Assembly: GCA_964510655.1 (NCBI GenBank)
Contig: CAZEAY010000001.1
Coordinates: 33,421 to 97,420 of the forward strand
Direction of reading: 5' to 3'
DNA: 64,000 nt
Source: an uncultured Candidatus Saccharibacteria bacterium
GTDB taxonomy: Bacteria; Patescibacteriota; Minisyncoccia; Phycocordibacterales; XYD1-FULL-46-19
Below the pieces are notes generated by a model. It did no database searches. It was not told the origin of the DNA and worked only from the letters and a program-made list of their open reading frames with translations. Below are positions 11,345-57,744 of the stretch, in pieces. Every line of letters starts with the position of its first letter. Position 1 is the stretch's first letter. A program made the translations under genes and the position numbers.

Positions 11345-12433
11345 ATGAATTCATCCTCTTTTAATTTTATCAAGTTTTTTATTTTGGTGCTTTTGGTGAG
11401 CCCTTTAATCTCTTTGGCTGCGACCACCAAACTGTCTTATAGCGCCTGGATTCCTTATTGGAAGAAAACTGGTGGGGTCGCTGAAACAATCACTAATTTA
11501 AATAAACTAAACGAAATTAGCCCTTTTTCTTACACCGTATCAGCTAAGGGTGAGTTGGTTGATACTTTAAAAATTGGCAGTGAACCTTGGCCTAACTTAT
11601 TTAAACTGGCGCGTGCTCAAAAAGTAAAAATTCTCCCCGCTATTCTTTGGACTGATAGCTTGGCTATTGATCAAGTTTTACGTGACCCTGTAAAAAGACA
11701 GGCTCATGTTAAAAATATTTTAGCGGAGGTTGATAAAAACAATTTTGATGGAATCGATATTGATTATGAAAATAAATTTGCTTCAACTAGTCCTAATTTC
11801 TCTGTTTTCTTGCGTGACTTAGGTACCAAGCTTCATGCCAAAGGCAAGGTTTTGTCTTGTACAATTGAAGGGCGCACACCGCCCGAGTCCCGTTATTTGA
11901 CGGTTCCCAAGGTAGTGGAGTATGCCAATGATTACCCTTCTATCAATAAGTATTGTGATCAGGTTCGGCTGATGATTTATGATCAAGGAACGGTTGATAT
12001 CAAATTAAACATGGCTCGTCGGTTGGGTGGAGTTTATTATCCGATTGCTGATCCGACTTGGGTGCGTAAAGTTTTAGAACTTGCTCTAAAGGATATTAGT
12101 GCTAAAAAAATTGTTTTAGGGGTAGCAACCTATGGTTATGAATTGGAAATTACTGATAAGGGTAAATATTTTGATTATAAAAAGATACGTAGTTTGAGTT
12201 ATAAAGACTTTACTCAACTAGCTAAAGACCTAAAAATGTTGCCACGGCGTAATAATGCCGGAGAATTGTCTCTAATTTATCGCACGAAAGAGGGTAAGGT
12301 AAATTTTGTTTCTTTTAGTGATGCTCAGGCGGTGGCTGATAAAATTTTTATTGCCAAATTGTATAATTTGCGTGGGGTAGCGATTTTTAAGATAGACGGT
12401 GAAAGCGACAACTATTGGGTGAGCCTTAAGTAA
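11345..12433 (+). CDS. secreted glycoside hydrolase family 18 protein (chitinase/peptidoglycan hydrolase-like)
   Basis: Signal peptide plus the GH18 catalytic motif DGIDIDYE (DxxDxDxE). Confidence 0.6.
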   Translation: MNSSSFNFIKFFILVLLVSPLISLAATTKLSYSAWIPYWKKTGGVAETITNLNKLNEISPFSYTVSAKGELVDTLKIGSEPWPNLFKLARAQKVKILPAILWTDSLAIDQVLRDPVKRQAHVKNILAEVDKNNFDGIDIDYENKFASTSPNFSVFLRDLGTKLHAKGKVLSCTIEGRTPPESRYLTVPKVVEYANDYPSINKYCDQVRLMIYDQGTVDIKLNMARRLGGVYYPIADPTWVRKVLELALKDISAKKIVLGVATYGYELEITDKGKYFDYKKIRSLSYKDFTQLAKDLKMLPRRNNAGELSLIYRTKEGKVNFVSFSDAQAVADKIFIAKLYNLRGVAIFKIDGESDNYWVSLK

Positions 12434-32425: not shown

Positions 32426-34009
32426 TTATTCCACCAAAAACTCAGATATGGTGACAGGAACGGTCATCGTAAGAGATACCGACTGACCATCAATGCTTCC
32501 GCCAATAGAGGCTGTTCCAACGTTTCCGTCGGCGGAATAAAGAGCTGATGCACTCCCACCACTCATTGTGGTTGGTGTGGACCCGAAGCTTCCGATATCG
32601 GCTGTATAGGTCAACACGGAACCAGATGGAATTGTTCCGGCGATGCTGGTGTCAGTACCGCTTGAGTTCTCCTGTAAATGGAGACTAATGGTACTGGTCT
32701 CGTTTGGCTGAATGTCTGTTGGATTAGCAGTAATCGTCGCGACAATCCAAGGGTTGGTGTTGAAGCTGACTTCAGAAACACCACAGCCACCATTGCCCGG
32801 TCCAGCATTGCAACCCCACCAGTTGTTAGTGAGATCAACATTGTAGGTCCCAGCGGTCGGGTTACCGTCAAAACTTATAGCTGATTTTTCCGTGTGAGTA
32901 GTGTTACCCACGATTCGGTTGAAATTCGCTTGCAAGTTCAAGACTTGACCCGTTTCGCTCTCAATTTCCAAAGCTACACCACAATTAAGTAGCGAGTTGT
33001 TGTTGAAGACGACAGAGGAGCGGGAACTGAAGTACCCGTATACATCAGTACTTTGGTATAGACCAATGCTCCCACTGCGATTATTGAGATCCACCACATT
33101 ACCTGTGAGGGTAATGGTAGTGGGTGCTCCCTCTCCGGCCACCCAGAAGGCGACATCCTGTTGAGTAACAGAGTTTGTCGTGACTTGAACTGGTAAGTAT
33201 GGGGCATAGACCCAGATACCATAAGCTCCAGCCGTCCCGCTAGTAACTGTGTTTTCAGTCAATAAGTCAGCTGAACCGCCGCTACTGCCGTTGTTGTCGG
33301 TATGTATTCCGCTTCCGGAAAACCCGACTACGTTGTACTTGACCACTGTTCCTTTTGAGTGATTTGAGGCGATGCTGTCATTGCATCTGGTAACCGTATT
33401 GCTGGTCACCTGTCCGCTCCCGGTGAAATTGAAAATTCCGATGGAATTTCCGTCTCCGGAAACATTGTCGACAGTATTGTTTTGGAAGTTGAAACTTCCG
33501 CCAGTTGAGGCATAAATACCACGTAGGTAGATATTCCTCACTGTGCAATTCTGGACGGTCAGATTTTGGAAGACGCCCGTCGTGTGATCAGTGATGATCC
33601 CATTACGGGCGGCCAAATCAGCTCCATTGCGGACAATTCCACTTGGAGTAAGTGCTCCTGTTGTCTGACCATCCAGACAAACACCATCAATAGTGATGTC
33701 ATTAGCCTGGATCAGAAAAATGTTGCTGGCGGCCGGACACAATGAGCTTCCACTACAGGGGTTTGGACCTGAGATCGCGGGGTAGATCATTGTTGCCCCT
33801 GACCCGTCACCCAAAAAGGTGACTCCGGGGTTGCGGGCGATCACGTTTTCTTGCCAGTTACCAGCGGGGATATGCACCGTGTCTCCTGAGCCTGAAGCGT
33901 CAGAGCATTGTTGGATGGTTCCGTCTATTCCCGCTGTGCGGGTGGTTGCGTGAACCACCTCTCCACTCATCAGCACAATGCTGAGTATCAGTAACCAGAA
34001 TGCCCTCAT
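32426..34009 (-). CDS. secreted right-handed parallel beta-helix repeat protein (pectate-lyase/NosD-like fold); GC-rich
   Basis: Signal peptide MRAFWLLILSIVLMSGEVVHA. Many PbH1-like repeats (NCTVRNIYLRGIYAS, NTVDNVSGDGNSIGIF, NTVTRCNDSIASNHS…). Strong SD (GGAGGAATGTCATG). Composition clearly GC-richer than neighbours. Confidence 0.6.
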   Translation of the reverse strand: MRAFWLLILSIVLMSGEVVHATTRTAGIDGTIQQCSDASGSGDTVHIPAGNWQENVIARNPGVTFLGDGSGATMIYPAISGPNPCSGSSLCPAASNIFLIQANDITIDGVCLDGQTTGALTPSGIVRNGADLAARNGIITDHTTGVFQNLTVQNCTVRNIYLRGIYASTGGSFNFQNNTVDNVSGDGNSIGIFNFTGSGQVTSNTVTRCNDSIASNHSKGTVVKYNVVGFSGSGIHTDNNGSSGGSADLLTENTVTSGTAGAYGIWVYAPYLPVQVTTNSVTQQDVAFWVAGEGAPTTITLTGNVVDLNNRSGSIGLYQSTDVYGYFSSRSSVVFNNNSLLNCGVALEIESETGQVLNLQANFNRIVGNTTHTEKSAISFDGNPTAGTYNVDLTNNWWGCNAGPGNGGCGVSEVSFNTNPWIVATITANPTDIQPNETSTISLHLQENSSGTDTSIAGTIPSGSVLTYTADIGSFGSTPTTMSGGSASALYSADGNVGTASIGGSIDGQSVSLTMTVPVTISEFLVE

Positions 34010-46393: not shown

Positions 46394-46673
46394 AAAAAAA
46401 ACGCCTTAACCCACAAATTGTGAGCCCTGCCACCTAGTTGCGTCCCTAGAGCTAAATGCTTTAGCAAATCTTGTATAGACAACGTCAGTTAAGCAAGTGA
46501 TTAATAATAGATATATAGTATCAAAAATACTCTAAAAATACAAGGATTTCTCAAAGACCTCCTCTTTTTTTAAGAAATTTTATGAGCTTGACTTTTGAAT
46601 CCTCCTTAACTATACTATATATATAGTTAAATTTTATTAATTAATTTTAACTATAATAATTCATAATTAAAGT

Positions 46674-47837
46674 ATGAAATACACAGTTGGAAAGAAAATA
46701 AAAGCGACTAGTCCTCAAGGAGAGGCGTATTTGGCGTTTTTACCCGAACTAATAAATAAGGATTTTACTTGGGAGGATAAAAAAATAGATATACTGCTAG
46801 AGTCCGCTCGTGGCTGGCTTGGTGAACTAAATGCTTACTCGAAATTAATTCCTAACGTCGATTTTTTTATAGAGTCACATATCGCAAAAGAAGCAGAACA
46901 GTCTAGTCGAATTGAGGGGACAAAAACCACACTAGAAGAACTCTATCTTGATAAGGGTGATTTTGATGATCAGGAAAAAATAAATGATCAGGAAGAAGTG
47001 AAGAACTATATTAATGCATTAAATTATTCTATAAAAAATATTACAACTCCTGGCGAGATTCCACTTTCTACAAGACTTGTTTGTGGTGCTCATAAAATTT
47101 TACTTGATAATGTTCGAGGATATAAACGTCACCCTGGTGAGATAAGAAAAATACAAAATAAAATTGGAGGAAGCCAGGGTTCTCTTAAAGATGCTATCTT
47201 TATTCCTCCAACCCCAGAAATGGTTTCTGATCTTTTGAATGATTTGGAAAAATTTTGGCACAATAAAAATCTTGAAATTCCAGATCTGATAAAAGTCGCA
47301 TTGTCACATTATCAATTCGAAACAATACACCCATTTGAAGACGGAAATGGGAGAATCGGTCGTTTGATAATTATATTGCAACTCGTAACGTATGGGATGC
47401 TACAGAAACCAACATTGTACCTCTCTGATTATTTTGAGAAAAATAGATCGGCTTATTATGATGCTCTTTCTCGCGTACGAGAATCTGGGGACATGGAACA
47501 TTGGATAAAATTTTTCCTTGTTGGTGTCACTGAAACGGCCAAAAAAGGAAAAGAAACGTTAGAAAGTATCATTGATTTAAAAAAGAAATACGAAGATCTA
47601 ATCGATGGATATATGGGAGTTAAACAACAAAAACTTGGTAAGAAGTTGTTAAAATTCCTGTTTGCTAAGCCATTAGTAACAGCAAAAGATGTTGAGCAAA
47701 TGCTTGGAGTTACGAAACCAACAGCCACTGCTCTTGTAAACAAGCTGGCAGAAGCAAATATTTTAAAGGAGAGAACTGGATATAAAAGAAATCGAGTTTA
47801 TGCGCTCGATGAGTATTTAGCATTATTCAATAGTTAA
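46674..47837 (+). CDS. fic: Fic family protein (AMPylase-type), with an N-terminal domain and a C-terminal wHTH
   Basis: Canonical Fic motif HPFEDGNGRIGR and a candidate inhibitory SxxxEG motif (SSRIEG) in the N-terminal region. Confidence 0.85.
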   Translation: MKYTVGKKIKATSPQGEAYLAFLPELINKDFTWEDKKIDILLESARGWLGELNAYSKLIPNVDFFIESHIAKEAEQSSRIEGTKTTLEELYLDKGDFDDQEKINDQEEVKNYINALNYSIKNITTPGEIPLSTRLVCGAHKILLDNVRGYKRHPGEIRKIQNKIGGSQGSLKDAIFIPPTPEMVSDLLNDLEKFWHNKNLEIPDLIKVALSHYQFETIHPFEDGNGRIGRLIIILQLVTYGMLQKPTLYLSDYFEKNRSAYYDALSRVRESGDMEHWIKFFLVGVTETAKKGKETLESIIDLKKKYEDLIDGYMGVKQQKLGKKLLKFLFAKPLVTAKDVEQMLGVTKPTATALVNKLAEANILKERTGYKRNRVYALDEYLALFNS

Positions 47838-47845
47838 AATTATGT

Positions 47846-49603
47846 ATGGAAAATTTTAGTCATATAACATCAATGATCTGGAGTATAGCCGACATCTTGC
47901 GTGGCGGCTGGAAACAGCATGAATACCAGGACGTAATATTACCCTTGGTAGTTTTGAAACGTCTTGATTCTATCCTTGCAGACACTAAAGCTTCGGTCCT
48001 CGAGAAATACAACGAGTACAAAGGCAAAGTGAATGACCTTGACCCTATCTTGAAGAAGACCTCAGGCACAGCCTTCTACAATATCTCTGATTACGATTTC
48101 AAAACCATTCTTGGAGAACCAAAGCATCTCGCAAAGAACTTCAAGCAGTACATCAACGGGTACAGCAAGAATATCCAGGATATCTTTGAGAAGTTTGATT
48201 TCAGCAAACAGCTCGAGCGTCTCGAAGGTGGTGATCTCTTGTTTTACGTGATTCAGGAATTGAATAAAGTGGATTTGCACCCTTCAAAGGTAGATAACTA
48301 TCAAATGGGACACATCTTTGAAGAGCTTCTCCGAAAGTTTTCTGAAATGTCCAACGAAACCGCTGGAGAGCACTACACGCCAAGAGATGTGATCGGACTT
48401 ATGACCGAGATGCTCTTCTCGCCTGATAAGAAGGATCTCAAGAAACCTCATGTTATCAAAAAGATTTACGACCCTGCCTGTGGTACCGGCGGTATGCTTT
48501 CTGTTGCCAAGGATTACATTCTAGAAAACATAAACAAAGAAGCTGACATTTTCCTCTACGGACAGGAACTCAACTCGGTGACTTACGCTATGGCCAAGTC
48601 AGACATGCTTATCAAGGGCGATAACCCAGACCTTATTCGAGGCGGAGAAAAGGACCACTCAAAAGCAAGCACACTCGCTAACGATCAATTTTTTGCAGAA
48701 GTGTTTGATTATGGTCTATCAAATCCGCCCTACGGAGTTGATTGGAAGAAAGATAAAGATGCTGTTGAGCGTGAAGCCTCACGTGGATACGCTGGGCGAT
48801 TTGGTGCAGGCACTCCTCGCATCTCTGATGGACAGCTTTTATTCTTGCAGCACTTGATCTCAAAGATGAAGCCTGAGAAAGACGGTGGCTCACGTATAGC
48901 AATCGTCCACAACGGGTCCCCACTATTTACTGGTGATGTCGGTAGTGGAGAAAGCGAAATCCGAAGATGGATTCTTGAAAAGGATTTGCTCGAAGCAATC
49001 GTTGCATTGCCTGATCAGCTTTTCTATAACACAGGTATCAATACATATCTCTGGTTTGTCACCAACAGAAAATCAAAAGAACGAAAAGGTAAGGTCCAGC
49101 TCATTGATGCCCGTACCTTCTTTAAGAAGACTCGCAAAAGTCTTGGTAGCAAGCGACATGAGATTGATTCAGATCATAAAAAACAAATCTTGGATTTGTA
49201 TGAGAAGTTTGAGGAAAATGAATACTCAAAGATTTTCAAGACAACAGATTTTGCATACAGACAGATTCAAATTGAGCGTCCACTCAAGGATGAGAAGGGG
49301 AATTTTGTAAAAAACAAGAAAGGAGAAGTGGAGACGGATAAGTCACTTCGTGATCATGAAAATGTTCCATATGATATGGACATAAAAGAATACTTCAACA
49401 AAGAGGTAAAGCCATATGTGCCCGATGCATGGATCAATGAATCAGTCCGAGATCACAAAGACGGAAAGGTTGGCATTGTGGGCTATGAAATCCCATTCAC
49501 TCGCTACTTTTACAAATATGAGGCACCACGAAGCCTTGAAGAAATCGAGACTGATATAGAAAAGGTCGAGAACGAATTGCTCATTCTCCTAAAGCAACTT
49601 TAA
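47846..49603 (+). CDS. hsdM: type I restriction-modification system methyltransferase subunit HsdM
   Basis: N-terminal HsdM_N pattern and N6-MTase motifs (DPACGTGGML motif I, NPPYG motif IV). Confidence 0.9.
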   Translation: MENFSHITSMIWSIADILRGGWKQHEYQDVILPLVVLKRLDSILADTKASVLEKYNEYKGKVNDLDPILKKTSGTAFYNISDYDFKTILGEPKHLAKNFKQYINGYSKNIQDIFEKFDFSKQLERLEGGDLLFYVIQELNKVDLHPSKVDNYQMGHIFEELLRKFSEMSNETAGEHYTPRDVIGLMTEMLFSPDKKDLKKPHVIKKIYDPACGTGGMLSVAKDYILENINKEADIFLYGQELNSVTYAMAKSDMLIKGDNPDLIRGGEKDHSKASTLANDQFFAEVFDYGLSNPPYGVDWKKDKDAVEREASRGYAGRFGAGTPRISDGQLLFLQHLISKMKPEKDGGSRIAIVHNGSPLFTGDVGSGESEIRRWILEKDLLEAIVALPDQLFYNTGINTYLWFVTNRKSKERKGKVQLIDARTFFKKTRKSLGSKRHEIDSDHKKQILDLYEKFEENEYSKIFKTTDFAYRQIQIERPLKDEKGNFVKNKKGEVETDKSLRDHENVPYDMDIKEYFNKEVKPYVPDAWINESVRDHKDGKVGIVGYEIPFTRYFYKYEAPRSLEEIETDIEKVENELLILLKQL

Positions 49604-49608
49604 ATTAT

Positions 49609-50904
49609 ATGCAAACACTCAAGCTTACAAAAAAATATGAGAAATATCCTGAATATAAAGATTCGGGTGTTGAGTGGTTGGGTAATATTCCTGAAAATTG
49701 GAGTGTTTATAAAATGAAGACTTTAGGAAGTTTTTCAGCGAGCGGAATTGACAAAAAAATTAATGATAAAGAAATTCCAGTAAAGCTTCTTAATTACACT
49801 AATGTCTATGGAAATAAGGCGTTAACTATAGACGGTAAAACGGCTTTTGGAGAAACAACAACGACAAAGGACAAGATTACTGATTATTCAATAAAAAAAG
49901 GTGATATATATTTTACACCAAGCTCAGAGACAGAAAAGGATATTGGTGTATCTAGTGTTGCACTTGAGGATATCCCGGATGCGGTTTTTAGTTACCACCT
50001 AATAAGATTTAGGCCAAAAGCTGCAATTGATATTTCATTTAGTAAATATTTCACAAATAATTCGTGGGTTTTATCTCAGTTTTCATCGCTTTGCAATGGA
50101 ACAACAAGAATGGTGGTAAATAGAGATGATTTTAAAAATATAAACGTTGTTTTACCAACTAAAAAAGATCAAGAAAAAATTGCTGATTATCTTAATGAAA
50201 AAACTTCTGTTATTGATGAGATAATAGAAAAAAAAGAAAAGTTGATTGAGCTTTCGAAAGAAAAAAGAACCTCTGTAATCAATACCGTAATTTCTGAAGT
50301 AGTTGGAGAAAAAGGAAAACTAAAAAACTACATACAACTAAATCCTTCAAAAAAAGGAATTTCTGCAATTGGTCCTGAGGACGCGGTTTCCTTTGTTCCT
50401 ATGGAAGCAATCTCAGAACTTGGAGAACTACAAATACAAGAAAGAAAATACAAAGATGTAAGTAGTGGCTTCACCTACTTTAAAGATGGAGATGTTGTGC
50501 TTGCAAAAATAACTCCTTGCTATGAAAACGGTAAGGCGGGAGTAATTAGAGGACTGAAAAATGGATTTGGGTTTGGGACGACTGAATTCATGGTGCTTCG
50601 ACCAAGCAACAAGATTCTTGCTGATTACCTTTATTACGTAGTCTTTTCAGATAAATTCAGAAAGATGGGTGAAGTTGAGATGAGAGGAACAGCAGGGCAA
50701 AAACGAGTAACCTCATCATTTGCAATGAACTACGGACTATTTATTCCAGATATTAAAACTCAAGAAAAGATTGTGGTCGAGTTAAATAAAAAAATGAAGA
50801 TGTTTGATGTCGCTATAGCAAAAGTTGAAACTTCAATTTCATACCTCAAAGAATTTAAGACTTCCCTCATATCAAATGTTGTAACGGGAAAAATTAAAGT
50901 ATAA
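49609..50904 (+). CDS. hsdS: type I restriction-modification specificity subunit HsdS (two TRDs)
   Basis: Position in the operon, two repeated half-structures with conserved central and C-terminal coiled regions (…LIELSKEKRTSVI…, …KTSLISNVVTGKIKV), and very AT-rich composition. Confidence 0.8.
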   Translation: MQTLKLTKKYEKYPEYKDSGVEWLGNIPENWSVYKMKTLGSFSASGIDKKINDKEIPVKLLNYTNVYGNKALTIDGKTAFGETTTTKDKITDYSIKKGDIYFTPSSETEKDIGVSSVALEDIPDAVFSYHLIRFRPKAAIDISFSKYFTNNSWVLSQFSSLCNGTTRMVVNRDDFKNINVVLPTKKDQEKIADYLNEKTSVIDEIIEKKEKLIELSKEKRTSVINTVISEVVGEKGKLKNYIQLNPSKKGISAIGPEDAVSFVPMEAISELGELQIQERKYKDVSSGFTYFKDGDVVLAKITPCYENGKAGVIRGLKNGFGFGTTEFMVLRPSNKILADYLYYVVFSDKFRKMGEVEMRGTAGQKRVTSSFAMNYGLFIPDIKTQEKIVVELNKKMKMFDVAIAKVETSISYLKEFKTSLISNVVTGKIKV

Positions 50905-50908
50905 ATAT

Positions 50909-53050
50909 ATGATTAATAAAGTCTTAAAAATAAAGAATATAGGGAAATTCAAAAACCTTTGTTCAGTCAATGACGACCTGGCTTTTAAGACGTACACCCT
51001 GGTTTTTGGACCTAATAAACATGGAAAAACTACTTTTACATCAATACTCAAGTCTTTGAAGACGTCAGAGATTGATCACCTAATAGGACGAAAAACATTT
51101 GGATCAACAGCAAATGATAGCCAAGAGTATGAAATATTAATGAGTGATGGTTCTAAATATACATACAATTCTGGACTGAAAAATAAAGATATCGAAATAT
51201 TTGATAATGATTTCATAAATAGAAATGTTTTTTCTGGTGACAGTATTGATAAAAGCAATAGATCTAGTCTTTATAGCATCCTACTCGACAGTGCAAATGT
51301 AAAACTAAAGGAAGAGATAGACGAACTTGAGAGAAAACAAACAACTATCTCCACTGAAAAAACTGGAGCAAAAAATGCTATTGATAATTTTGATGACTTT
51401 ATAAAGTTAAATGCAACTGATGAAATAGCTGATATCGCAACAAAAATTGAAGAGAATAATAACAAGATTAAGCAATATAATAACCAAGCTCAATTAGACA
51501 TATTACGTAAGAAATCAAAGTTTCATTTTGATTTTGTGGCCTTTGAGGAGAAATTGAAACAAACCATTGATACCAAGCTTGAAAGTAAAATAAATGAACA
51601 CATAAAGAATAATCATAAAAACAATACAAAGAGTAAAGATTTTCTAAAAATTGGTACAGATTTGCTTGCCGATAGTAATGATTGTCCATTTTGTGGCCAA
51701 TCCTTAGACAACGTGACTGATCACATTACTGTCCTGAAGACTTTTTTCAGTGATACCTACAAAGAAATTCAAGAAAGTATTAATGAATCAATAAATCTTT
51801 TTAGTGAAATTGATATTGAAAAAGAGATCAATGCTTTCAAGGTTTGTGGATTAGAGTTTCCTAAATTAGATATTGTTAATTTGGGAGCTAACTTTTCAAC
51901 AGCGAAAGATAAAATAAAAGAGAAACAGACAGACTTATCAAAAGATATAAAAATCGGAGAAGATCAGGGTTATATCTCGTTTAAGAAAGAAATAATTAGC
52001 CTTAAGAAAGAAATTGATGATCTTACAACAAAAAGCCTAGATATAGTTGCTCTAGACAAAGAGACTTCGAGATTAAACCTCAACAAAGACAGATTTTCTG
52101 CTATTGGCATTGCAAAATTTAATACCTACAAAGAAAAAGAGAATGCATTTGAGGAAAACAAAAGAGTAATCAGTGAAAAAACCGATAAGTTAAAACTGGA
52201 CCTTAATACTCTTTTTAAAAAGCATCTTGAAAAGATAAATGATGTTCTTCGTATTTCAGGTGCAAATTTCAAACTAAAAAAACTCGATGCTAACACGAAC
52301 AGAAGCTTGAGAGATCATATGTGCGAATATAGTTTTGTTTTTGATAACACGCATGATGTAAGTGTAGAGGGTCAAGATAATACTCCCAATTTTAAAAATA
52401 CCTTAAGCGACTCTGATAAAAGAGTTCTCGCTTTCGCCTTTTTCGTAGCAAAAATAAAATCTGAAAACGATATCACTAATAAAATTATTGTATTAGATGA
52501 TCCTTTTACAAGTCTTGATGAAGACCGAAAAGACAGCATGATTAACCTTATTAAAGACCTTGGTTTTAAGCAGGTAATAATCTTGTCACATAGTAAAAGG
52601 TTTGTGGGTAGATGCTTTGAGTTGTTTCCAAGAGATGTAATGAAAACTCTAAAATTGCACTGCTCTGCAGCAAGCGGATCGCTTTTTGAGGTTATGGATG
52701 TCAAAAAAGAAATACTAGATACTGACATTGAAAAAGATCTTGCTTATATAAGAAATTCTATACACAAAAACATTAACCTAAAAGAAGCATGTCAAAAAGT
52801 TAGACTCTGCATTGAACAAATATTGAAAGAAAAATATTCAGATTTTATAAAGCCAGAAAATCTTGCAGGTAATGCATCAATTGGTACCTTTTTATTTGAT
52901 ATCGGAGCTAGGTGTCCAGCAAAAAAAGATATAGAAGGTGGGTATTGGCATGATGATCATCACGCACAAAATCCAACCAATACAGCTGATGACACGGAAA
53001 GGTTGAATAAACTTAAATACTTTATAGAAACCATTTTACCCACAATATAA
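50909..53050 (+). CDS. RloC/PrrC-like ABC-type ATPase with a coiled coil and CxxC zinc hook (AAA_13-like), embedded in the type I R-M operon; putative anticodon nuclease
   Basis: Walker A VFGPNKHGKTT. Long coiled-coil middle region carrying CPFCGQ. ABC signature-like LSDSDKR, Walker B IIVLDDPFTSLD and H-loop ILSHS. About 150-aa C-terminal domain with Rx3E (RLCIEQ) and HDDHH. Sits between hsdS and hsdR, as prrC and rloC do. Confidence 0.5.
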   Translation: MINKVLKIKNIGKFKNLCSVNDDLAFKTYTLVFGPNKHGKTTFTSILKSLKTSEIDHLIGRKTFGSTANDSQEYEILMSDGSKYTYNSGLKNKDIEIFDNDFINRNVFSGDSIDKSNRSSLYSILLDSANVKLKEEIDELERKQTTISTEKTGAKNAIDNFDDFIKLNATDEIADIATKIEENNNKIKQYNNQAQLDILRKKSKFHFDFVAFEEKLKQTIDTKLESKINEHIKNNHKNNTKSKDFLKIGTDLLADSNDCPFCGQSLDNVTDHITVLKTFFSDTYKEIQESINESINLFSEIDIEKEINAFKVCGLEFPKLDIVNLGANFSTAKDKIKEKQTDLSKDIKIGEDQGYISFKKEIISLKKEIDDLTTKSLDIVALDKETSRLNLNKDRFSAIGIAKFNTYKEKENAFEENKRVISEKTDKLKLDLNTLFKKHLEKINDVLRISGANFKLKKLDANTNRSLRDHMCEYSFVFDNTHDVSVEGQDNTPNFKNTLSDSDKRVLAFAFFVAKIKSENDITNKIIVLDDPFTSLDEDRKDSMINLIKDLGFKQVIILSHSKRFVGRCFELFPRDVMKTLKLHCSAASGSLFEVMDVKKEILDTDIEKDLAYIRNSIHKNINLKEACQKVRLCIEQILKEKYSDFIKPENLAGNASIGTFLFDIGARCPAKKDIEGGYWHDDHHAQNPTNTADDTERLNKLKYFIETILPTI

Positions 53051-53054
53051 ACAT

Positions 53055-56021
53055 ATGACAACAAAAACAAACACAAAAGAATCAGGATTTGAAGAATTTA
53101 TTGAGCAAGAGCTCAAGAGTCTTCATTCATACCGGACTCGATCAACCTCTTCATACAACAAAGAGCTTTGCATGGATACCGAGTTGGTCCTCGAGTTTAT
53201 TCATACAACACAGAAAGATAGTTGGGATAAGTTGGTTGAACAATATGGTGGCGATGTTGCCAATCGATTTTTGGCTAGACTAGATGAAGAGCTTCTTTCT
53301 CGTGGACTTCTCAGTGTCCTGCGAGAAGGTGTGAAGGATAGAGGTGTAACTATTCAACTTGCGTATCTCAAACCAGAAAATGATAAAAACCCCGAGACAC
53401 TTGCCGACTACGCAGGGAATATCTTGAGCGTAATGCGACAGGTCAAATATAGTGTCAAGAACGAGAACTCTATCGACATGGTTATATTTGTAAACGGTCT
53501 TCCTCTCTTTACCTCTGAACTTAAGAATCAATTCACCAGACAGAATGTTATCAATGCAATTTCACAATACAGAACTGATCGTGATCAGAAAGAAAAGTTG
53601 CTTGGATTTAAGAGATGCCTCACACACTTTGCGGTGGATACCGAACAGGTATACATGACCACTAAACTCTCGGGACTTACCACCTACTTCTTGCCATTCA
53701 ACAAAGGCAATAACGGATCATCTGGTAACCCTGAAGCACCGAAAGGAAAATACAAAACTTATTATCTCTGGGAAGAAATCTGGTCCAAGGATAGTATCTT
53801 TGACCTGATTGGTAATTTCATACAAGATATAACAGAAGAAAAAGAAGACAAGAATGGAAGGCGACATAGGGATGAAAAAATCATCTTCCCTCGATATCAT
53901 CAATTGGAAACAGTTAAGAGAATTGTTGAAGATGCCAAAGCTTATGGTGCGGGTAAGAATCATCTCATTCAGCACAGTGCTGGGTCTGGGAAGAGTAATA
54001 CTATTGCTTGGACCGCTCATCGATTAGCGGGACTTCATAATATTGGAGGTAAAAACGTCTTTGACGGGGTAATTGTTGTAACCGATCGACGAGTACTTGA
54101 TAGACAATTATCTGAGGCGGTGGACAGTTTTAGTGCGACCGTTGGCCTCGTTAAACACGCAGATAACTCAGCACAACTTGCTGATTATTTAAGAAATGGC
54201 ATCAAAATTATCACAACAACGCTCCAAAAGTTTCCTGTTATTGTCGATACAGTAGAAGCTCTTGAAGGTAGAAAGTTTGCAGTGATTATCGATGAGGCTC
54301 ATTCATCACAATCAGGTGAATCGGCAGCCGACCTGCGCCAGGTCCTCACACTTGATGAAGCTGAAAAAGAAAGTCAGGAAGAAGAGAAAGCATTTAAGAC
54401 GATTGAAGATCAGATCGTCGAACGTATGAAGGCTCGAAAAGTAGCATCTCCAAACCTGTCATTCTTTGCCTTTACTGCAACACCAAAACAAAAGACTCTT
54501 GAGCTTTTCGGTACCGAAGATGCGGTAACAGGTAAATTCGGTCCCTTCTCCCTCTATTCAATGAAGCAAGCCATCGAAGAGAAGTTTATTCTCGATGTGC
54601 TTAAGAATTACACAACTTACGAAACTTACTTCGGACTTTTGAAGAAGGTTGAGGATGACCCAGAATTCGACAAGAAAAAGGCTCAGCGACTTATGGTTGG
54701 ATATGTTGAGCGACATGAGCATGCTATCGATAAGAAGGTGGCCATTATGGTTGAACACTTCGAGGAAAAGATCGCCTCACTTATTAACGGCAAGGCAAAA
54801 GCTATGGTGGTGACCAAGTCTCGACTTCATGCGGTCCGTTATAAGATTGCATTTGATAAGTATCTAAAAGAAAAAGGATATGCACACAAAGCCCTCGTAG
54901 CGTTCTCTGGAACGGTTAAGGATGTTGATACCAAGCTTGAATACACCGAGGGCCAGATGAACAAGGTGCCTGAGAGTCAGACCGCTGAAGAGTTCAAAAA
55001 TGATAACTATAAGTTCCTAATCGTTGCCGAGAAGTTCCAGACTGGATTCGACCAGCCACTTCTCTCGGTAATGTATGTAGATAAGAAACTTGGTGGTGTT
55101 GGTGCGGTCCAGACTTTGTCTCGACTTAATCGAACCACATATAACAAAGAAGAAACCTTCGTTCTTGATTTCGTAAACCAGACTGATGATATCAAGGAAG
55201 CCTTCCAACCTTACTACACAACTACTGTTCTCTCAGAAGCGACAGATCCAAACATCCTGCATGATCTTGAGCGAGATGTGCGTGGTTTCAAGTTCTTCAC
55301 TGATTTTGAGGTTAATGGCTTTATAGACGAGCTTTATTCAAGAGCAACTCCTGACAAGCTCAATTATATTATCGATGGTGTAGTCTCTCGCATCAATGAA
55401 GAGAACCTCACTGAAGAAGAAATGGAGAGTTTCAAGTCTACGGTATTTGATTATCTCAAAAAATACGCATTCATCTCACAGATTGTAACCTTCGAAGATC
55501 CTCAGCTGGAAAAGTTGTTCATATTCTTAAAGTATCTGATTAGAAAGCTTCCTAAGCGTGAAAACCCACTACCATATGAGGTCCTTCAGGCAATAGATAT
55601 GGAAACATACCGAGTGGAAAAGAAAGGTGAAATGCATCTTCAGCTCGAAAATGCTGAAGGTCTTATTGAGCCTATGGGCGGTGGTGATGCCAAAAGTTCA
55701 TCTGAAGATGAAAGAGATGCTCTGTCTCGCATCATCAAAGAAGTAAATGAAAGATACGGTACCAACTTCAATGACGGTGACCGAGTGATCCTTAATGACT
55801 TGAGTAAGCGACTACTTGAAAGCGAGATCCTTCAGGGTTCAGTAATGAACAACAGCAAAGATGCCGCTAAGTTAAAATTCGATCAGCTCTTCCAGGACGA
55901 GCTCGTGAGCGTGCTTGATAAGCATTTTAGCTTGTATCAAAAGTTGGACCAGAGTCCAGAGCTCAAGAAGTTTGTGCAAGAGCGTGTGTTCGAATTTGTG
56001 GTTAAGAAAATGAAAAAATAA
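53055..56021 (+). CDS. hsdR: type I restriction enzyme R subunit HsdR
   Basis: N-terminal PD-(D/E)xK nuclease motif (DMVIFVNGLPLFTSELK). SF2 helicase motifs (SAGSGKS, DEAH in VIIDEAHSSQ). Confidence 0.9.
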   Translation: MTTKTNTKESGFEEFIEQELKSLHSYRTRSTSSYNKELCMDTELVLEFIHTTQKDSWDKLVEQYGGDVANRFLARLDEELLSRGLLSVLREGVKDRGVTIQLAYLKPENDKNPETLADYAGNILSVMRQVKYSVKNENSIDMVIFVNGLPLFTSELKNQFTRQNVINAISQYRTDRDQKEKLLGFKRCLTHFAVDTEQVYMTTKLSGLTTYFLPFNKGNNGSSGNPEAPKGKYKTYYLWEEIWSKDSIFDLIGNFIQDITEEKEDKNGRRHRDEKIIFPRYHQLETVKRIVEDAKAYGAGKNHLIQHSAGSGKSNTIAWTAHRLAGLHNIGGKNVFDGVIVVTDRRVLDRQLSEAVDSFSATVGLVKHADNSAQLADYLRNGIKIITTTLQKFPVIVDTVEALEGRKFAVIIDEAHSSQSGESAADLRQVLTLDEAEKESQEEEKAFKTIEDQIVERMKARKVASPNLSFFAFTATPKQKTLELFGTEDAVTGKFGPFSLYSMKQAIEEKFILDVLKNYTTYETYFGLLKKVEDDPEFDKKKAQRLMVGYVERHEHAIDKKVAIMVEHFEEKIASLINGKAKAMVVTKSRLHAVRYKIAFDKYLKEKGYAHKALVAFSGTVKDVDTKLEYTEGQMNKVPESQTAEEFKNDNYKFLIVAEKFQTGFDQPLLSVMYVDKKLGGVGAVQTLSRLNRTTYNKEETFVLDFVNQTDDIKEAFQPYYTTTVLSEATDPNILHDLERDVRGFKFFTDFEVNGFIDELYSRATPDKLNYIIDGVVSRINEENLTEEEMESFKSTVFDYLKKYAFISQIVTFEDPQLEKLFIFLKYLIRKLPKRENPLPYEVLQAIDMETYRVEKKGEMHLQLENAEGLIEPMGGGDAKSSSEDERDALSRIIKEVNERYGTNFNDGDRVILNDLSKRLLESEILQGSVMNNSKDAAKLKFDQLFQDELVSVLDKHFSLYQKLDQSPELKKFVQERVFEFVVKKMKK

Positions 56022-56024
56022 GTG

Positions 56025-56459
56025 ATGGAAAATCTTTCTGAAAAAGTTGTTGAAAAAGCTATTTTGAAACACCTTGCCTTAAAAGGATGGGATTATAATA
56101 TTAAAACTAAGGGACTTCATGAGCATGGTTGTGATATTGTTGTAACTAGCTCGAAAAATAAAAATAAAGCGACAAGATTTTTGATAGAATGTAAGGGTAG
56201 GTCATATGCAAAATCTGCAAAGTCTATTGCTGAAACTAATTTTTTGTTTGCTCTTGGTCAGTTGATTACTAGAATGAGTGTAATTGCAAGACATGCTTAT
56301 AAATATGGTCTTGGATTGCCAGAAGAAAGTGCAAAAAAGGCGTTACACAGGATTCCATGGCAGGTTGCAAGACAGTTATGTCTGTATATTTTTTCTGTAG
56401 ATGATATGGGTAGAGTGACAGAGTATTCCCCTAGGGATTTTAAGAAAACTAATAAATAA
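56025..56459 (+). CDS. small PD-(D/E)xK nuclease-fold protein (Mrr-cat/YraN-like core) abutting the hsdR stop
   Basis: Candidate catalytic D (HGCDIVV) about 17 residues before an ExK (IECKG). Its ATG lies 3 nt after the hsdR TAA. Confidence 0.4.
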   Translation: MENLSEKVVEKAILKHLALKGWDYNIKTKGLHEHGCDIVVTSSKNKNKATRFLIECKGRSYAKSAKSIAETNFLFALGQLITRMSVIARHAYKYGLGLPEESAKKALHRIPWQVARQLCLYIFSVDDMGRVTEYSPRDFKKTNK

Positions 56460-56518: not shown

Positions 56519-57376
56519 ATGTGGAATTTTTCTAAAATATTAAAAATTTCTTTTGGGGTTGTGGCGGTTGTCTGTGTTATTTCTTTCTGGACAGTCGTTT
56601 CGTATTATGCGGGAAAAGAAATTGTGTCTGATAACTCGGGGATGGAGTCGGAGTCTTTATTTAGTGATGAGAGTTGTAATGTGGCGGGGATAAATTTGCA
56701 TGGCGATATTGTGACTTACCATACTAATGATGCTTATGATGATCAGGGAAATCTGATGTATGATCAGACGTCGTCTGATGAGGTGGCGTGGTTTATTGAA
56801 GAGGCACTGGCCAATGATAATATAAAAGCGATTGTGGTGGATGTGGATTCCTATGGTGGATCGCCAGTGGCAGCGGAAGAAATTGCTAATGATATTAAAA
56901 ATAGTAAAAAACCAGTCTTCGCCTATATTCGCGATGTAGGACTTTCCGCAGCTTATTGGGCGGTGAGTGGTGCTGATAAAATATTTGCTTCAAAAAATTC
57001 TGATGTTGGCTCGATTGGGATAACTAGTTCGTATGTAAGTAATGCCGAAAAGAATAAAAAAGATGGTCTTACTTTTGTCGATCTGAGTTCTGCTAAATAT
57101 AAAGATTCGGGTACGCCCGATAAGGTTTTGACGGCCGAGGAACGGGCTTTGTTTTTGCGGGACATAAATATTATGCATGAAAATTTTATTGAAGCCGTGG
57201 CAAGTAATCGCAAACTAGCAACCTCTACTGTTAAAAGTATCGCCGATGGATCAAGTGTTTTGGGAATGAAGGCCAAAGAGCTCGGCCTGATTGATGAGAT
57301 TGGTGGCCCGGCCGAAGTGGAAAAATATTTACAGACAAAAATAGGTGTAAAACCCGAAATTTGTTGGGGGAATTAA
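56519..57376 (+). CDS. sppA: signal peptide peptidase SppA (S49, 36K type)
   Basis: N-terminal TM and the S49 pattern (…VVDVDSYGGSPVAAEEI…AAYWAVSGADKIFASKNSDVGSIGI…). Confidence 0.8.
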   Translation: MWNFSKILKISFGVVAVVCVISFWTVVSYYAGKEIVSDNSGMESESLFSDESCNVAGINLHGDIVTYHTNDAYDDQGNLMYDQTSSDEVAWFIEEALANDNIKAIVVDVDSYGGSPVAAEEIANDIKNSKKPVFAYIRDVGLSAAYWAVSGADKIFASKNSDVGSIGITSSYVSNAEKNKKDGLTFVDLSSAKYKDSGTPDKVLTAEERALFLRDINIMHENFIEAVASNRKLATSTVKSIADGSSVLGMKAKELGLIDEIGGPAEVEKYLQTKIGVKPEICWGN

Positions 57377-57393
57377 GTTTAAAAATAAATATC

Positions 57394-57744
57394 ATGTCTA
57401 ATAATAACGAGTTGGAAAATATTAAAGAACAGATCCAAGAGTTGTCGGACCGATTGGATCTGTTTGCAGAACGGCAGAATGCTCAATTTACTGAGATGAT
57501 GTTTTTATTAAATGATATCAGTGCCAATGTTTTAGAGAAGAGGAACGAAAGCCAGATGTCAGATGACGAACTGTATGAAGAAGCAGAAATAGCTGTAATT
57601 CAAGCTAAAAAGGCTTCAGCTTCTTTTTTGCAAAGAAAGTTTAAAATTGGTTACGCTCGAGCTGCTAATTTGATGGATTTACTTGAAAAAAATGGAGTCA
57701 TTGGTACCGCTGAAGGGTCTTATCCTCGTAAAGTTTTAGGGTAA
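57394..57744 (+). CDS. small protein with a C-terminal FtsK-gamma-like winged-helix domain
   Basis: …EAEIAVIQAKKASASFLQRKFKIGYARAANLMDLLEKNGVIG… matches the FtsK gamma (KOPS-binding) domain pattern. Start set at the internal ATG (MSNNNE). Confidence 0.5.
   Translation: MSNNNELENIKEQIQELSDRLDLFAERQNAQFTEMMFLLNDISANVLEKRNESQMSDDELYEEAEIAVIQAKKASASFLQRKFKIGYARAANLMDLLEKNGVIGTAEGSYPRKVLG

Follow-up and report, generated by a model that had tools for sequence, protein, structure and literature searches.

A family of small predicted PD-(D/E)xK nucleases encoded mainly at the end of restriction-modification operons in Patescibacteria

We analyzed a small gene that closes a restriction-modification (R-M) operon of an uncultured Candidatus Saccharibacteria bacterium (GenBank assembly GCA_964510655.1). 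The gene lies in a stretch of 64,000 nucleotides, hereafter the window, corresponding to positions 33,421 to 97,420 of contig CAZEAY010000001.1 (forward strand); coordinates are those of the window unless another locus is named. Six genes of the same orientation (46674-56459) make up the operon, in the order SoFic, hsdM, hsdS, AAA_13 ATPase, hsdR and small nuclease, with intergenic gaps of 3-8 nt. An earlier note, made from the window sequence without database searches, had read the product as a minimal PD-(D/E)xK nuclease. Judging from sequence comparisons and a structural model, we consider it somewhat more probable than not that the protein cleaves DNA as an autonomous metal-dependent endonuclease and is a portable accessory of R-M operons.

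The gene and its protein family

The mechanically delimited open reading frame (ORF) on the + strand, 56022-56459, opens with a GTG that directly touches the hsdR stop codon (TAA, 56019-56021). The earlier note took it for a 145-residue frame starting 3 nt after that stop. The ORF is real, but its likely start is the ATG at 56025, located 3 nt past the hsdR stop and giving a product of 144 residues, because the N-termini of homologues line up with this position (alignment A1); translation might alternatively begin at the in-frame GTG at 56022. The protein (16 kDa) is basic, with an isoelectric point of 9.7. The GC content of the gene is 0.333 overall and 0.228 at third codon positions (GC3). 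Features of the gene are given below; residue counts refer to an alignment of 83 diverse family members, 24-70% identical to the window protein.

56025..56459, + strand: small nuclease gene; ATG start, 144 residues, TAA stop at 56457-56459
56040..56042, + strand: codon of E6, the N-terminal helix acidic residue of the predicted PD-(D/E)xK site; E in 79/83
56133..56135, + strand: codon of D37 (G-C-D, predicted strand 2), predicted metal ligand; D in 81/83
56187..56195, + strand: codons of E55-C56-K57, the ExK motif on predicted strand 3; E55 in 83/83, K57 in 80/83
56259..56261, + strand: codon of Q79 (ALGQ, helix 2); Q in 74/83, E in 7 more

The motif that first suggested a nuclease, HEHGCDIVVTS (with D37) followed after 17 residues by RFLIECKGRSY (with E55 and K57), is present as quoted, and its D...ExK arrangement is kept among the homologues. 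The most conserved positions of the alignment are exactly the predicted catalytic ones. Conservation is also high for G35 (81/83) and for R83, which comes after Q79 (79/83).

A search of a 5.8-billion-protein collection returned 399 homologues with E-values down to 1e-77, which puts the gene far beyond a chance ORF. The best 120 of these 399 are 64-87% identical to the window protein, and nearly all have about 140-160 residues. All homologues are unnamed or labeled 'hypothetical', and most come from Patescibacteria metagenome bins. An exhaustive profile search against 1.84 billion cluster representatives gave 229 clusters at E <= 1e-3; nearly all are stand-alone proteins of 130-160 residues, the longest one listed having 289. 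Among 185,579 species genomes we counted at least 22 loci, a lower bound since narrow peptide patterns were used. Identity of 65-85% is kept across different candidate phyla. Overall, the family is small, rare and tightly conserved.

It is also uncurated, being absent from Pfam, NCBIfam, PADLOC and PHROGs. Pfam produced sub-threshold matches only, within residues 2-79: MTES_1575 (E 1.8e-3), Mrr_cat (E 2.5e-3; 18.4 bits against a cut-off of 21), PDDEXK_9 and NOV_C. Neither NCBIfam, PADLOC-DB 2.0 (0 families) nor PHROGs had a meaningful match, single-sequence and profile searches for sequence relatives in the PDB gave only noise, and a literature search found no description of the family. We considered a phage or plasmid gene and rejected this idea, because the phage and plasmid collections, like PHROGs, had no match and IMG/VR only two distant ones. 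These two are the only occurrences found on viral contigs (loci L112, 6992-7492, and L113, 1876-2376; L numbers denote individual loci throughout). They encode a 166-residue relative, 44% identical, which is surrounded by small phage-like genes and followed, after about 1.5 kb, by an N6_N4 methyltransferase gene.

The AlphaFold2 model of the protein (predicted local distance difference test score, pLDDT, 85.5; predicted template modeling score, pTM, 0.84) has the alpha-beta-beta-beta-alpha-beta core of the PD-(D/E)xK superfamily, with a C-terminal extension consisting of helix-helix-hairpin-helix. The acid of strand 2 and the (D/E)xK of strand 3, which mark the superfamily, are in place, and so is the helix 1 acid that often accompanies them. 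The predicted fold matches restriction-endonuclease-fold proteins, and two XisH structures rank first and fourth in Foldseek. In agreement with the nuclease reading, the only profile matches, sub-threshold as they are, belong to PD-(D/E)xK families, and no non-nuclease family was proposed by the profile searches. The closer kinships suggested at the outset were borne out only in part. Mrr_cat is indeed the nearest sequence family, but it stays below its gathering cut-off for the window protein and is matched by 9 of the 83 members (E <= 0.01; best E 1e-5). YraN (UPF0102) does not appear among the Pfam or NCBIfam matches at E <= 0.1. NOV_C is matched by 7/83 members. The archaeal Holliday-junction resolvase Hjc (PF01870) gave neither a profile match nor a close structural match. 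We assign the protein, on sequence and model, to the PD-(D/E)xK superfamily as a predicted new family that is nearest to Mrr_cat by sequence and to XisH by structure, and file it under neither.

Domain fusions bear on the likely substrate. Among distant relatives of about 230 residues, HARE-HTH is fused N- or C-terminally in six and RAMA in one. In prokaryotes these two domains are found fused to restriction endonuclease domains of N6-adenine R-M systems, and they have been proposed to read modified bases (PMC4738411, PMC11037411). Because the distant relatives carry such DNA-reader domains, the family as a whole appears to act on DNA rather than RNA and to have a restriction-type role. A strongly basic protein would also suit two other roles, that of a ribonuclease (RNase) attacking, for example, tRNA or mRNA, and that of an operon regulator that binds nucleic acids without catalysis. 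Some PD-(D/E)xK proteins are RNases, and CdiA-CT toxins and tRNA-splicing endonuclease subunits occur among the weaker fold matches. We nevertheless regard both variants as very improbable: the fused domains are readers of DNA, DNA nucleases head both the fold and the profile matches, and conservation of the full metal-binding E-D-ExK set argues against a non-catalytic protein.

The operon and the genomic context of the family

The remaining genes of the operon and the site in front of it are as follows.

46588..46616, + strand: promoter-like site TTGACT-17-TATACT upstream of SoFic; consensus match only, 10/12
46674..47837, + strand: SoFic-type Fic gene, first in the block; Pfam Fic_N and Fic, PADLOC SoFic (E 1e-116)
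47846..49603, + strand: hsdM, N6-adenine methyltransferase subunit; Pfam HsdM_N and N6_Mtase, PADLOC MTase_I (E 3.6e-250)
49609..50904, + strand: hsdS, specificity subunit; Pfam Methylase_S, PADLOC Specificity_I
50909..53050, + strand: AAA_13 ABC-type ATPase between hsdS and hsdR; Pfam AAA_13 (E 7.5e-25), PADLOC candidate PDC-S06 (E 4.8e-51)
53055..56021, + strand: hsdR, type I restriction subunit; Pfam HSDR_N, SWI2_SNF2, ResIII and T1R_D3-like, TIGR00348

SoFic is separated from hsdM by 8 nt. The promoter-like site scored highest on the + strand within the AT-rich 280 nt that precede SoFic, and the number of such sites in the region is not above shuffled expectation. The promoter and terminator scan revealed nothing specific at the small gene, and no Shine-Dalgarno sequence was found before any of the six genes. 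We infer that the small gene is co-transcribed with the restriction subunit. The 3-nt gap, together with the lack of both a Shine-Dalgarno sequence and a promoter-like site in front of the gene, suggests that the two are probably translationally coupled as well. The operon is followed by a 59-nt spacer and an unrelated SppA peptidase gene.

The GC content of the operon is mosaic. hsdM (0.422) and hsdR (0.415) stand apart from SoFic (0.35), hsdS (0.33), the AAA_13 ATPase (0.31) and the small gene, which confirms that the latter resembles in its AT-richness hsdS and the ATPase (called RloC-like in the earlier note) rather than hsdM and hsdR. Because of this mosaic, the operon seems to have been put together from parts of differing origin. 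Two of the accompanying genes deserve a remark of their own. Within the ATPase are a Walker A motif and, inside a long Lys/Glu-rich charged stretch that looks like a coiled coil by eye, a CPFC (CxxC); the latter arrangement recalls a zinc hook. Fic-family genes recur in or near these type I operons (window 46674-47837, L010 614-1723, L026 1-715, L029 370-1512), and in L029 the Fic gene is placed between hsdM and hsdS.

To place the family in its genomic context, we gathered 22 loci from species-representative genomes, 80 from metagenomes and several by exact-protein look-up, which left 87 non-redundant loci. An upstream ORF was available in 77 of them, and in 75 it is on the same strand as the small gene. 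The gap between the two is <=25 nt in 39 of these 75 loci, and in 11 the genes overlap. Pfam domains of the 77 upstream neighbors are dominated by those of restriction subunits: ResIII (18), SWI2_SNF2 (14), T1R_D3-like (14), HSDR_N (12), T1RH-like_C (6) and EcoR124_C (4), next to Methylase_S (5), N6_N4_Mtase (3), N6_Mtase (2) and RE_endonuc (2). MrcB_N-HNH, AIPR, a D12 methylase and others occur as single cases.

We also surveyed R-M linkage with 19 Pfam-verified R-M seed proteins in loci having at least 3 kb of flanking sequence. An R-M subunit was found upstream in 34/46 loci, nearly always on the same strand, and downstream in 4/40; Pfam added a few R-M genes missed by the seeds on both sides. 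Type I HsdR and type III Res account for most of the linked partners. Type I HsdRs of three different C-terminal families precede the small gene in L008-L010, L016, L023, L026, L029 and L079, and type III Res proteins with the RE_endonuc domain do so in L007, L018 and L067. The partner is a fused methylase-specificity protein in L004 and a McrB-N/HNH protein in L021, a Micrarchaeia bin. Precomputed annotations of L023-L029 show the same R-M linkage. The suggestion that homologues might be consistently linked to hsdR or RloC thus holds for restriction genes, but the link is to R-M operons generally and not specifically to hsdR or the AAA_13 ATPase. Taken together, the small gene is embedded, in the same orientation, in restriction and defense operons of several types, predominantly as the last gene.

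Genes of DNA processing recur near the small gene. RadC (JAB domain) is encoded upstream on the same strand in seven loci (L011 1536-6139, L071, L087 641-3438, L002, L009, L026 and L110). It directly adjoins the small gene in L011, L071 and L087. In L011 and L087 the R-M genes follow the small gene instead of preceding it: an N6_N4 methylase and an OLD-like AAA_15/TOPRIM protein in the former, an HsdR-like protein in the latter. L071 is too short to place R-M genes relative to this pair. A Cas4/RecB-like PDDEXK_1 gene (about 250-280 residues) lies downstream in 14/72 non-redundant loci, often 0-50 nt away, and never upstream. It is on the same strand in 13 (L006, L013, L015, L018, L026, L031, L074, L076, L080, L081, L082, L093 and L097) and on the opposite strand in L038. 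A small protein with an FtsK gamma (KOPS-binding winged-helix) domain is encoded just downstream in the window (57361-57744, with a TTG start codon overlapping the 3' end of the SppA gene), L005 (8609-8926), L014 (about 11860-12130) and L072 (7441-7761).

These neighbors allow for a different explanation, namely that the small gene is a positional marker. It would belong, with RadC, the Cas4-like gene and FtsK gamma, to a DNA-processing neighborhood bordering a hotspot of defense-gene insertion, and its linkage to R-M genes would be due to location. The contacts with RadC, the one-sided occurrence of PDDEXK_1, the four FtsK gamma cases and the different small-gene alleles of two loci with nearly the same hsdR (see below) are all in line with this. 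We still find it unlikely. The family is too rare and patchy, both in species genomes and in clusters, to be a core gene; the preceding R-M gene is very close, with overlap in 11 loci; the window has neither RadC nor PDDEXK_1; and homology between related loci stops at about the end of the small gene, which indicates that the gene goes with the R-M side.

Relation to the restriction partner and to known systems

A second nuclease next to a restriction subunit could simply replace a defective one. This is not the case here. The nuclease motif of the window HsdR is intact (D141, E155-x-K157 and Q..Y172 conserved; alignment A3). The D..ExK and QxxxY motifs are invariant in all ten partner HsdRs examined, including that of the window, and type III partners retain their RE_endonuc domains. 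We therefore rejected the idea of a stand-in for a dead HsdR. A split-off C-terminal domain of HsdR was likewise rejected, as many unrelated proteins precede the small gene and no long fused forms exist among the 229 clusters. Nor is the protein itself an HsdR, HsdM or HsdS: the corresponding profiles gave no match except for a weak HSDR_N match in 1/83 members.

Next, we asked whether the small protein co-varies with its partner. Among pairs of small proteins that are at least 80% identical, just 17% have a homologous upstream partner, and the Spearman correlation is 0.16 (703 pairs, 38 loci). With such co-variation absent, a fitted subunit of one particular restriction enzyme is not supported. 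An ordinary type II enzyme with a cognate methylase is also unlikely, given that the cross-locus identity noted above is maintained next to unrelated methyltransferases and specificity subunits. The reverse situation is illustrated by L010, a Paceibacterota bin, whose HsdM and HsdR are 98% and 94% identical to those of the window, while the small proteins share 69%. Along hsdR, DNA identity between the two loci stays for the most part at 0.85-0.97 and drops to 0.55-0.81 at about 53.8-54.2 kb. It amounts to 0.90 in the interval spanning the junction of hsdR and the small gene, and to 0.61-0.70 from the next interval on. Homology of the window to both L010 and L008 stops at about the stop codon of the small gene. 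The proposal that the gene moves along with the locus's variable part is in agreement with one comparison, that with L010, in which identity drops from about 0.9 in hsdR once the small gene is reached. Judged by these alignments, the small gene appears to be a module at the R-M unit's 3' edge that can be exchanged. An autonomous add-on is suggested both because near-identical copies follow unrelated restriction proteins and because near-identical HsdRs carry different small-gene alleles.

Several known systems resemble the small protein in one respect or another. The Mrr_cat (PF04471), NOV_C and MTES_1575 families are its nearest sequence relatives. Like Mrr, the distant relatives with HARE-HTH join a winged-helix reader to a nuclease, and both Mrr and the small protein are linked to restriction loci. 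However, the N-terminal winged-helix domain of Mrr-type type IV enzymes is missing from the small protein, which has only a nuclease core and a C-terminal extension. Moreover, it has ExK, whereas QxK is described for the Mrr catalytic domain (PMC11037411), and its strongly conserved C-terminal half (RIPWQ...YSPKDFK) is absent from Mrr_cat. Vsr/DUF559 proteins are, like the small protein, restriction-fold nucleases of small size encoded right after a DNA-modification gene, but no Vsr or DUF559 profile matches the small protein, and its partner methyltransferases are of the N6-adenine/N4 type. Deamination-repair logic is not known to apply to such methyltransferases. In the HsdR of L016 (6431-9889), residues 316-419, located between HSDR_N and the helicase, form a DUF559 (Vsr-like endonuclease) domain, which looks like an endonuclease domain inserted in the restriction subunit. 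MTES_1575, to which the small protein shows its weak match, is also a secondary match (E 5.6e-6) on this insertion. In comparison with HamA of Hachiman and other defense pairs of a helicase and a small nuclease, the small gene has no HamB-type partner and no PADLOC match, and the helicase in front of it belongs to an entire restriction subunit that includes a nuclease already.

XisH (PF08814; PDB 2okf and 2inb), an fdxN-element excision controlling factor of Anabaena/Nostoc, has the closest solved structure and is similar to the small-protein model. In sequence, taxa, partners and context the two differ. There is no XisH Pfam match at E <= 0.1, none in any of the 83 members, and hhalign assigns a probability of 4.8% against 2okf. 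XisH is mostly cyanobacterial, while the small protein is found in Patescibacteria and in R-M operons, and the XisH partners XisI and XisF are absent among the annotated neighbors in the loci examined. The likeness nevertheless raises the question of whether the protein is a mobility factor and no defense effector at all. It might be a co-factor of excision or recombination in the manner of XisH, or a homing-type nuclease, and move itself together with the adjacent R-M cassette between genomes of the Candidate Phyla Radiation (CPR). If true, this would explain why operons of unrelated type I, type III and other systems end in one near-identical gene. The small gene marks the exact 3' edge of the block shared with related loci, its conservation across phyla implies frequent transfer, and serine recombinases are encoded a few kb beyond it in both L023 and the P0021 locus. 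Yet recombinases are not regularly adjacent, and neither a sequence relation to XisH nor its partner genes could be found. We consider such a function quite improbable.

PrrC and RloC are, like the small nuclease, encoded by extra nuclease genes inside type I hsd operons (PMC12707154), and the AAA_13 ATPase of the window belongs to their Pfam family. They are large ABC-ATPase anticodon RNases; in contrast, the small protein has a different fold and no ATPase, probably acts on DNA, and also accompanies type III and other systems. By analogy, the small protein could be a guardian, that is, an abortive-infection toxin that is silent while the R-M system works and is set free to attack host nucleic acid once restriction has been blocked by a phage. 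Besides the shared operon setting, this would agree with the other candidate abortive modules stacked in the window operon (SoFic and the AAA_13 ATPase), with the toxin-type character of non-R-M neighbors (DarT, AIPR, Shedu, NYN) and with the presence of HamA among the best fold matches. However, silencing by association in a complex predicts co-variation with the partner, and there is none across type I, type III and other partners. Furthermore, the 144 residues include no sensor or regulatory domain, and no antitoxin-like partner recurs beside the gene. On balance, a guardian is not a likely role for this protein.

Possible role and implications

We thus favor the portable DNA endonuclease. 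According to this model, the small nuclease would be made together with the restriction subunit, from the same transcript and likely by coupled translation, as the second and autonomous nuclease of the defense operon. It may act on DNA that has been engaged or broken by the ATP-dependent restriction enzyme, and finish or degrade it. Alternatively, it may attack invader DNA that escapes the methylation-based system.

Several observations weigh against this model. About a quarter of the loci with enough flanking sequence have no R-M gene upstream by the seed search; their neighbors are DarT/NADAR, AIPR, NYN, RadC, Shedu or unknown, mostly in defense contexts. In L011, L087 and L110 the small gene comes before the R-M genes, which lie downstream. 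Fusions to HARE-HTH or RAMA are seen in distant relatives that stand alone on short contigs, with one following an HSDR_N_2 protein. RNases, for instance the CdiA-CT tRNases, can have the PD-(D/E)xK fold as well, and the fold matches include subunits of tRNA-splicing endonuclease. Finally, a non-specific nuclease that is expressed constitutively is expected to be toxic. The small protein has no recognizable DNA-recognition module in its 144 residues that would account for its specificity or for the sparing of the host chromosome.

A small restriction-fold nuclease riding in a defense operon is of a kind already familiar. What lifts the present family above the routine is its unusually high conservation across candidate phyla, its consistent capping of several R-M types and its independence from the partner. 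Its members are compact and well defined, with clear predicted catalytic residues. Being missing from Pfam, NCBIfam, PADLOC and PHROGs, the family is overlooked by current defense annotation. R-M is the main recognized defense of the ultra-small CPR/Patescibacteria, and an extra conserved nuclease capping many of their R-M operons suggests a component beyond the textbook description. If the small nuclease raises restriction efficiency, degrades restricted DNA or provides fail-safe toxicity, it would add a modular part to R-M biology; otherwise it would be an ordinary defense-island passenger. CPR organisms are reported in a preprint (bioRxiv 10.64898/2026.07.13.738296) to be incapable of nucleotide synthesis. 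Degradation of restricted DNA by the small nuclease, if true, could feed nucleotide salvage in these bacteria.

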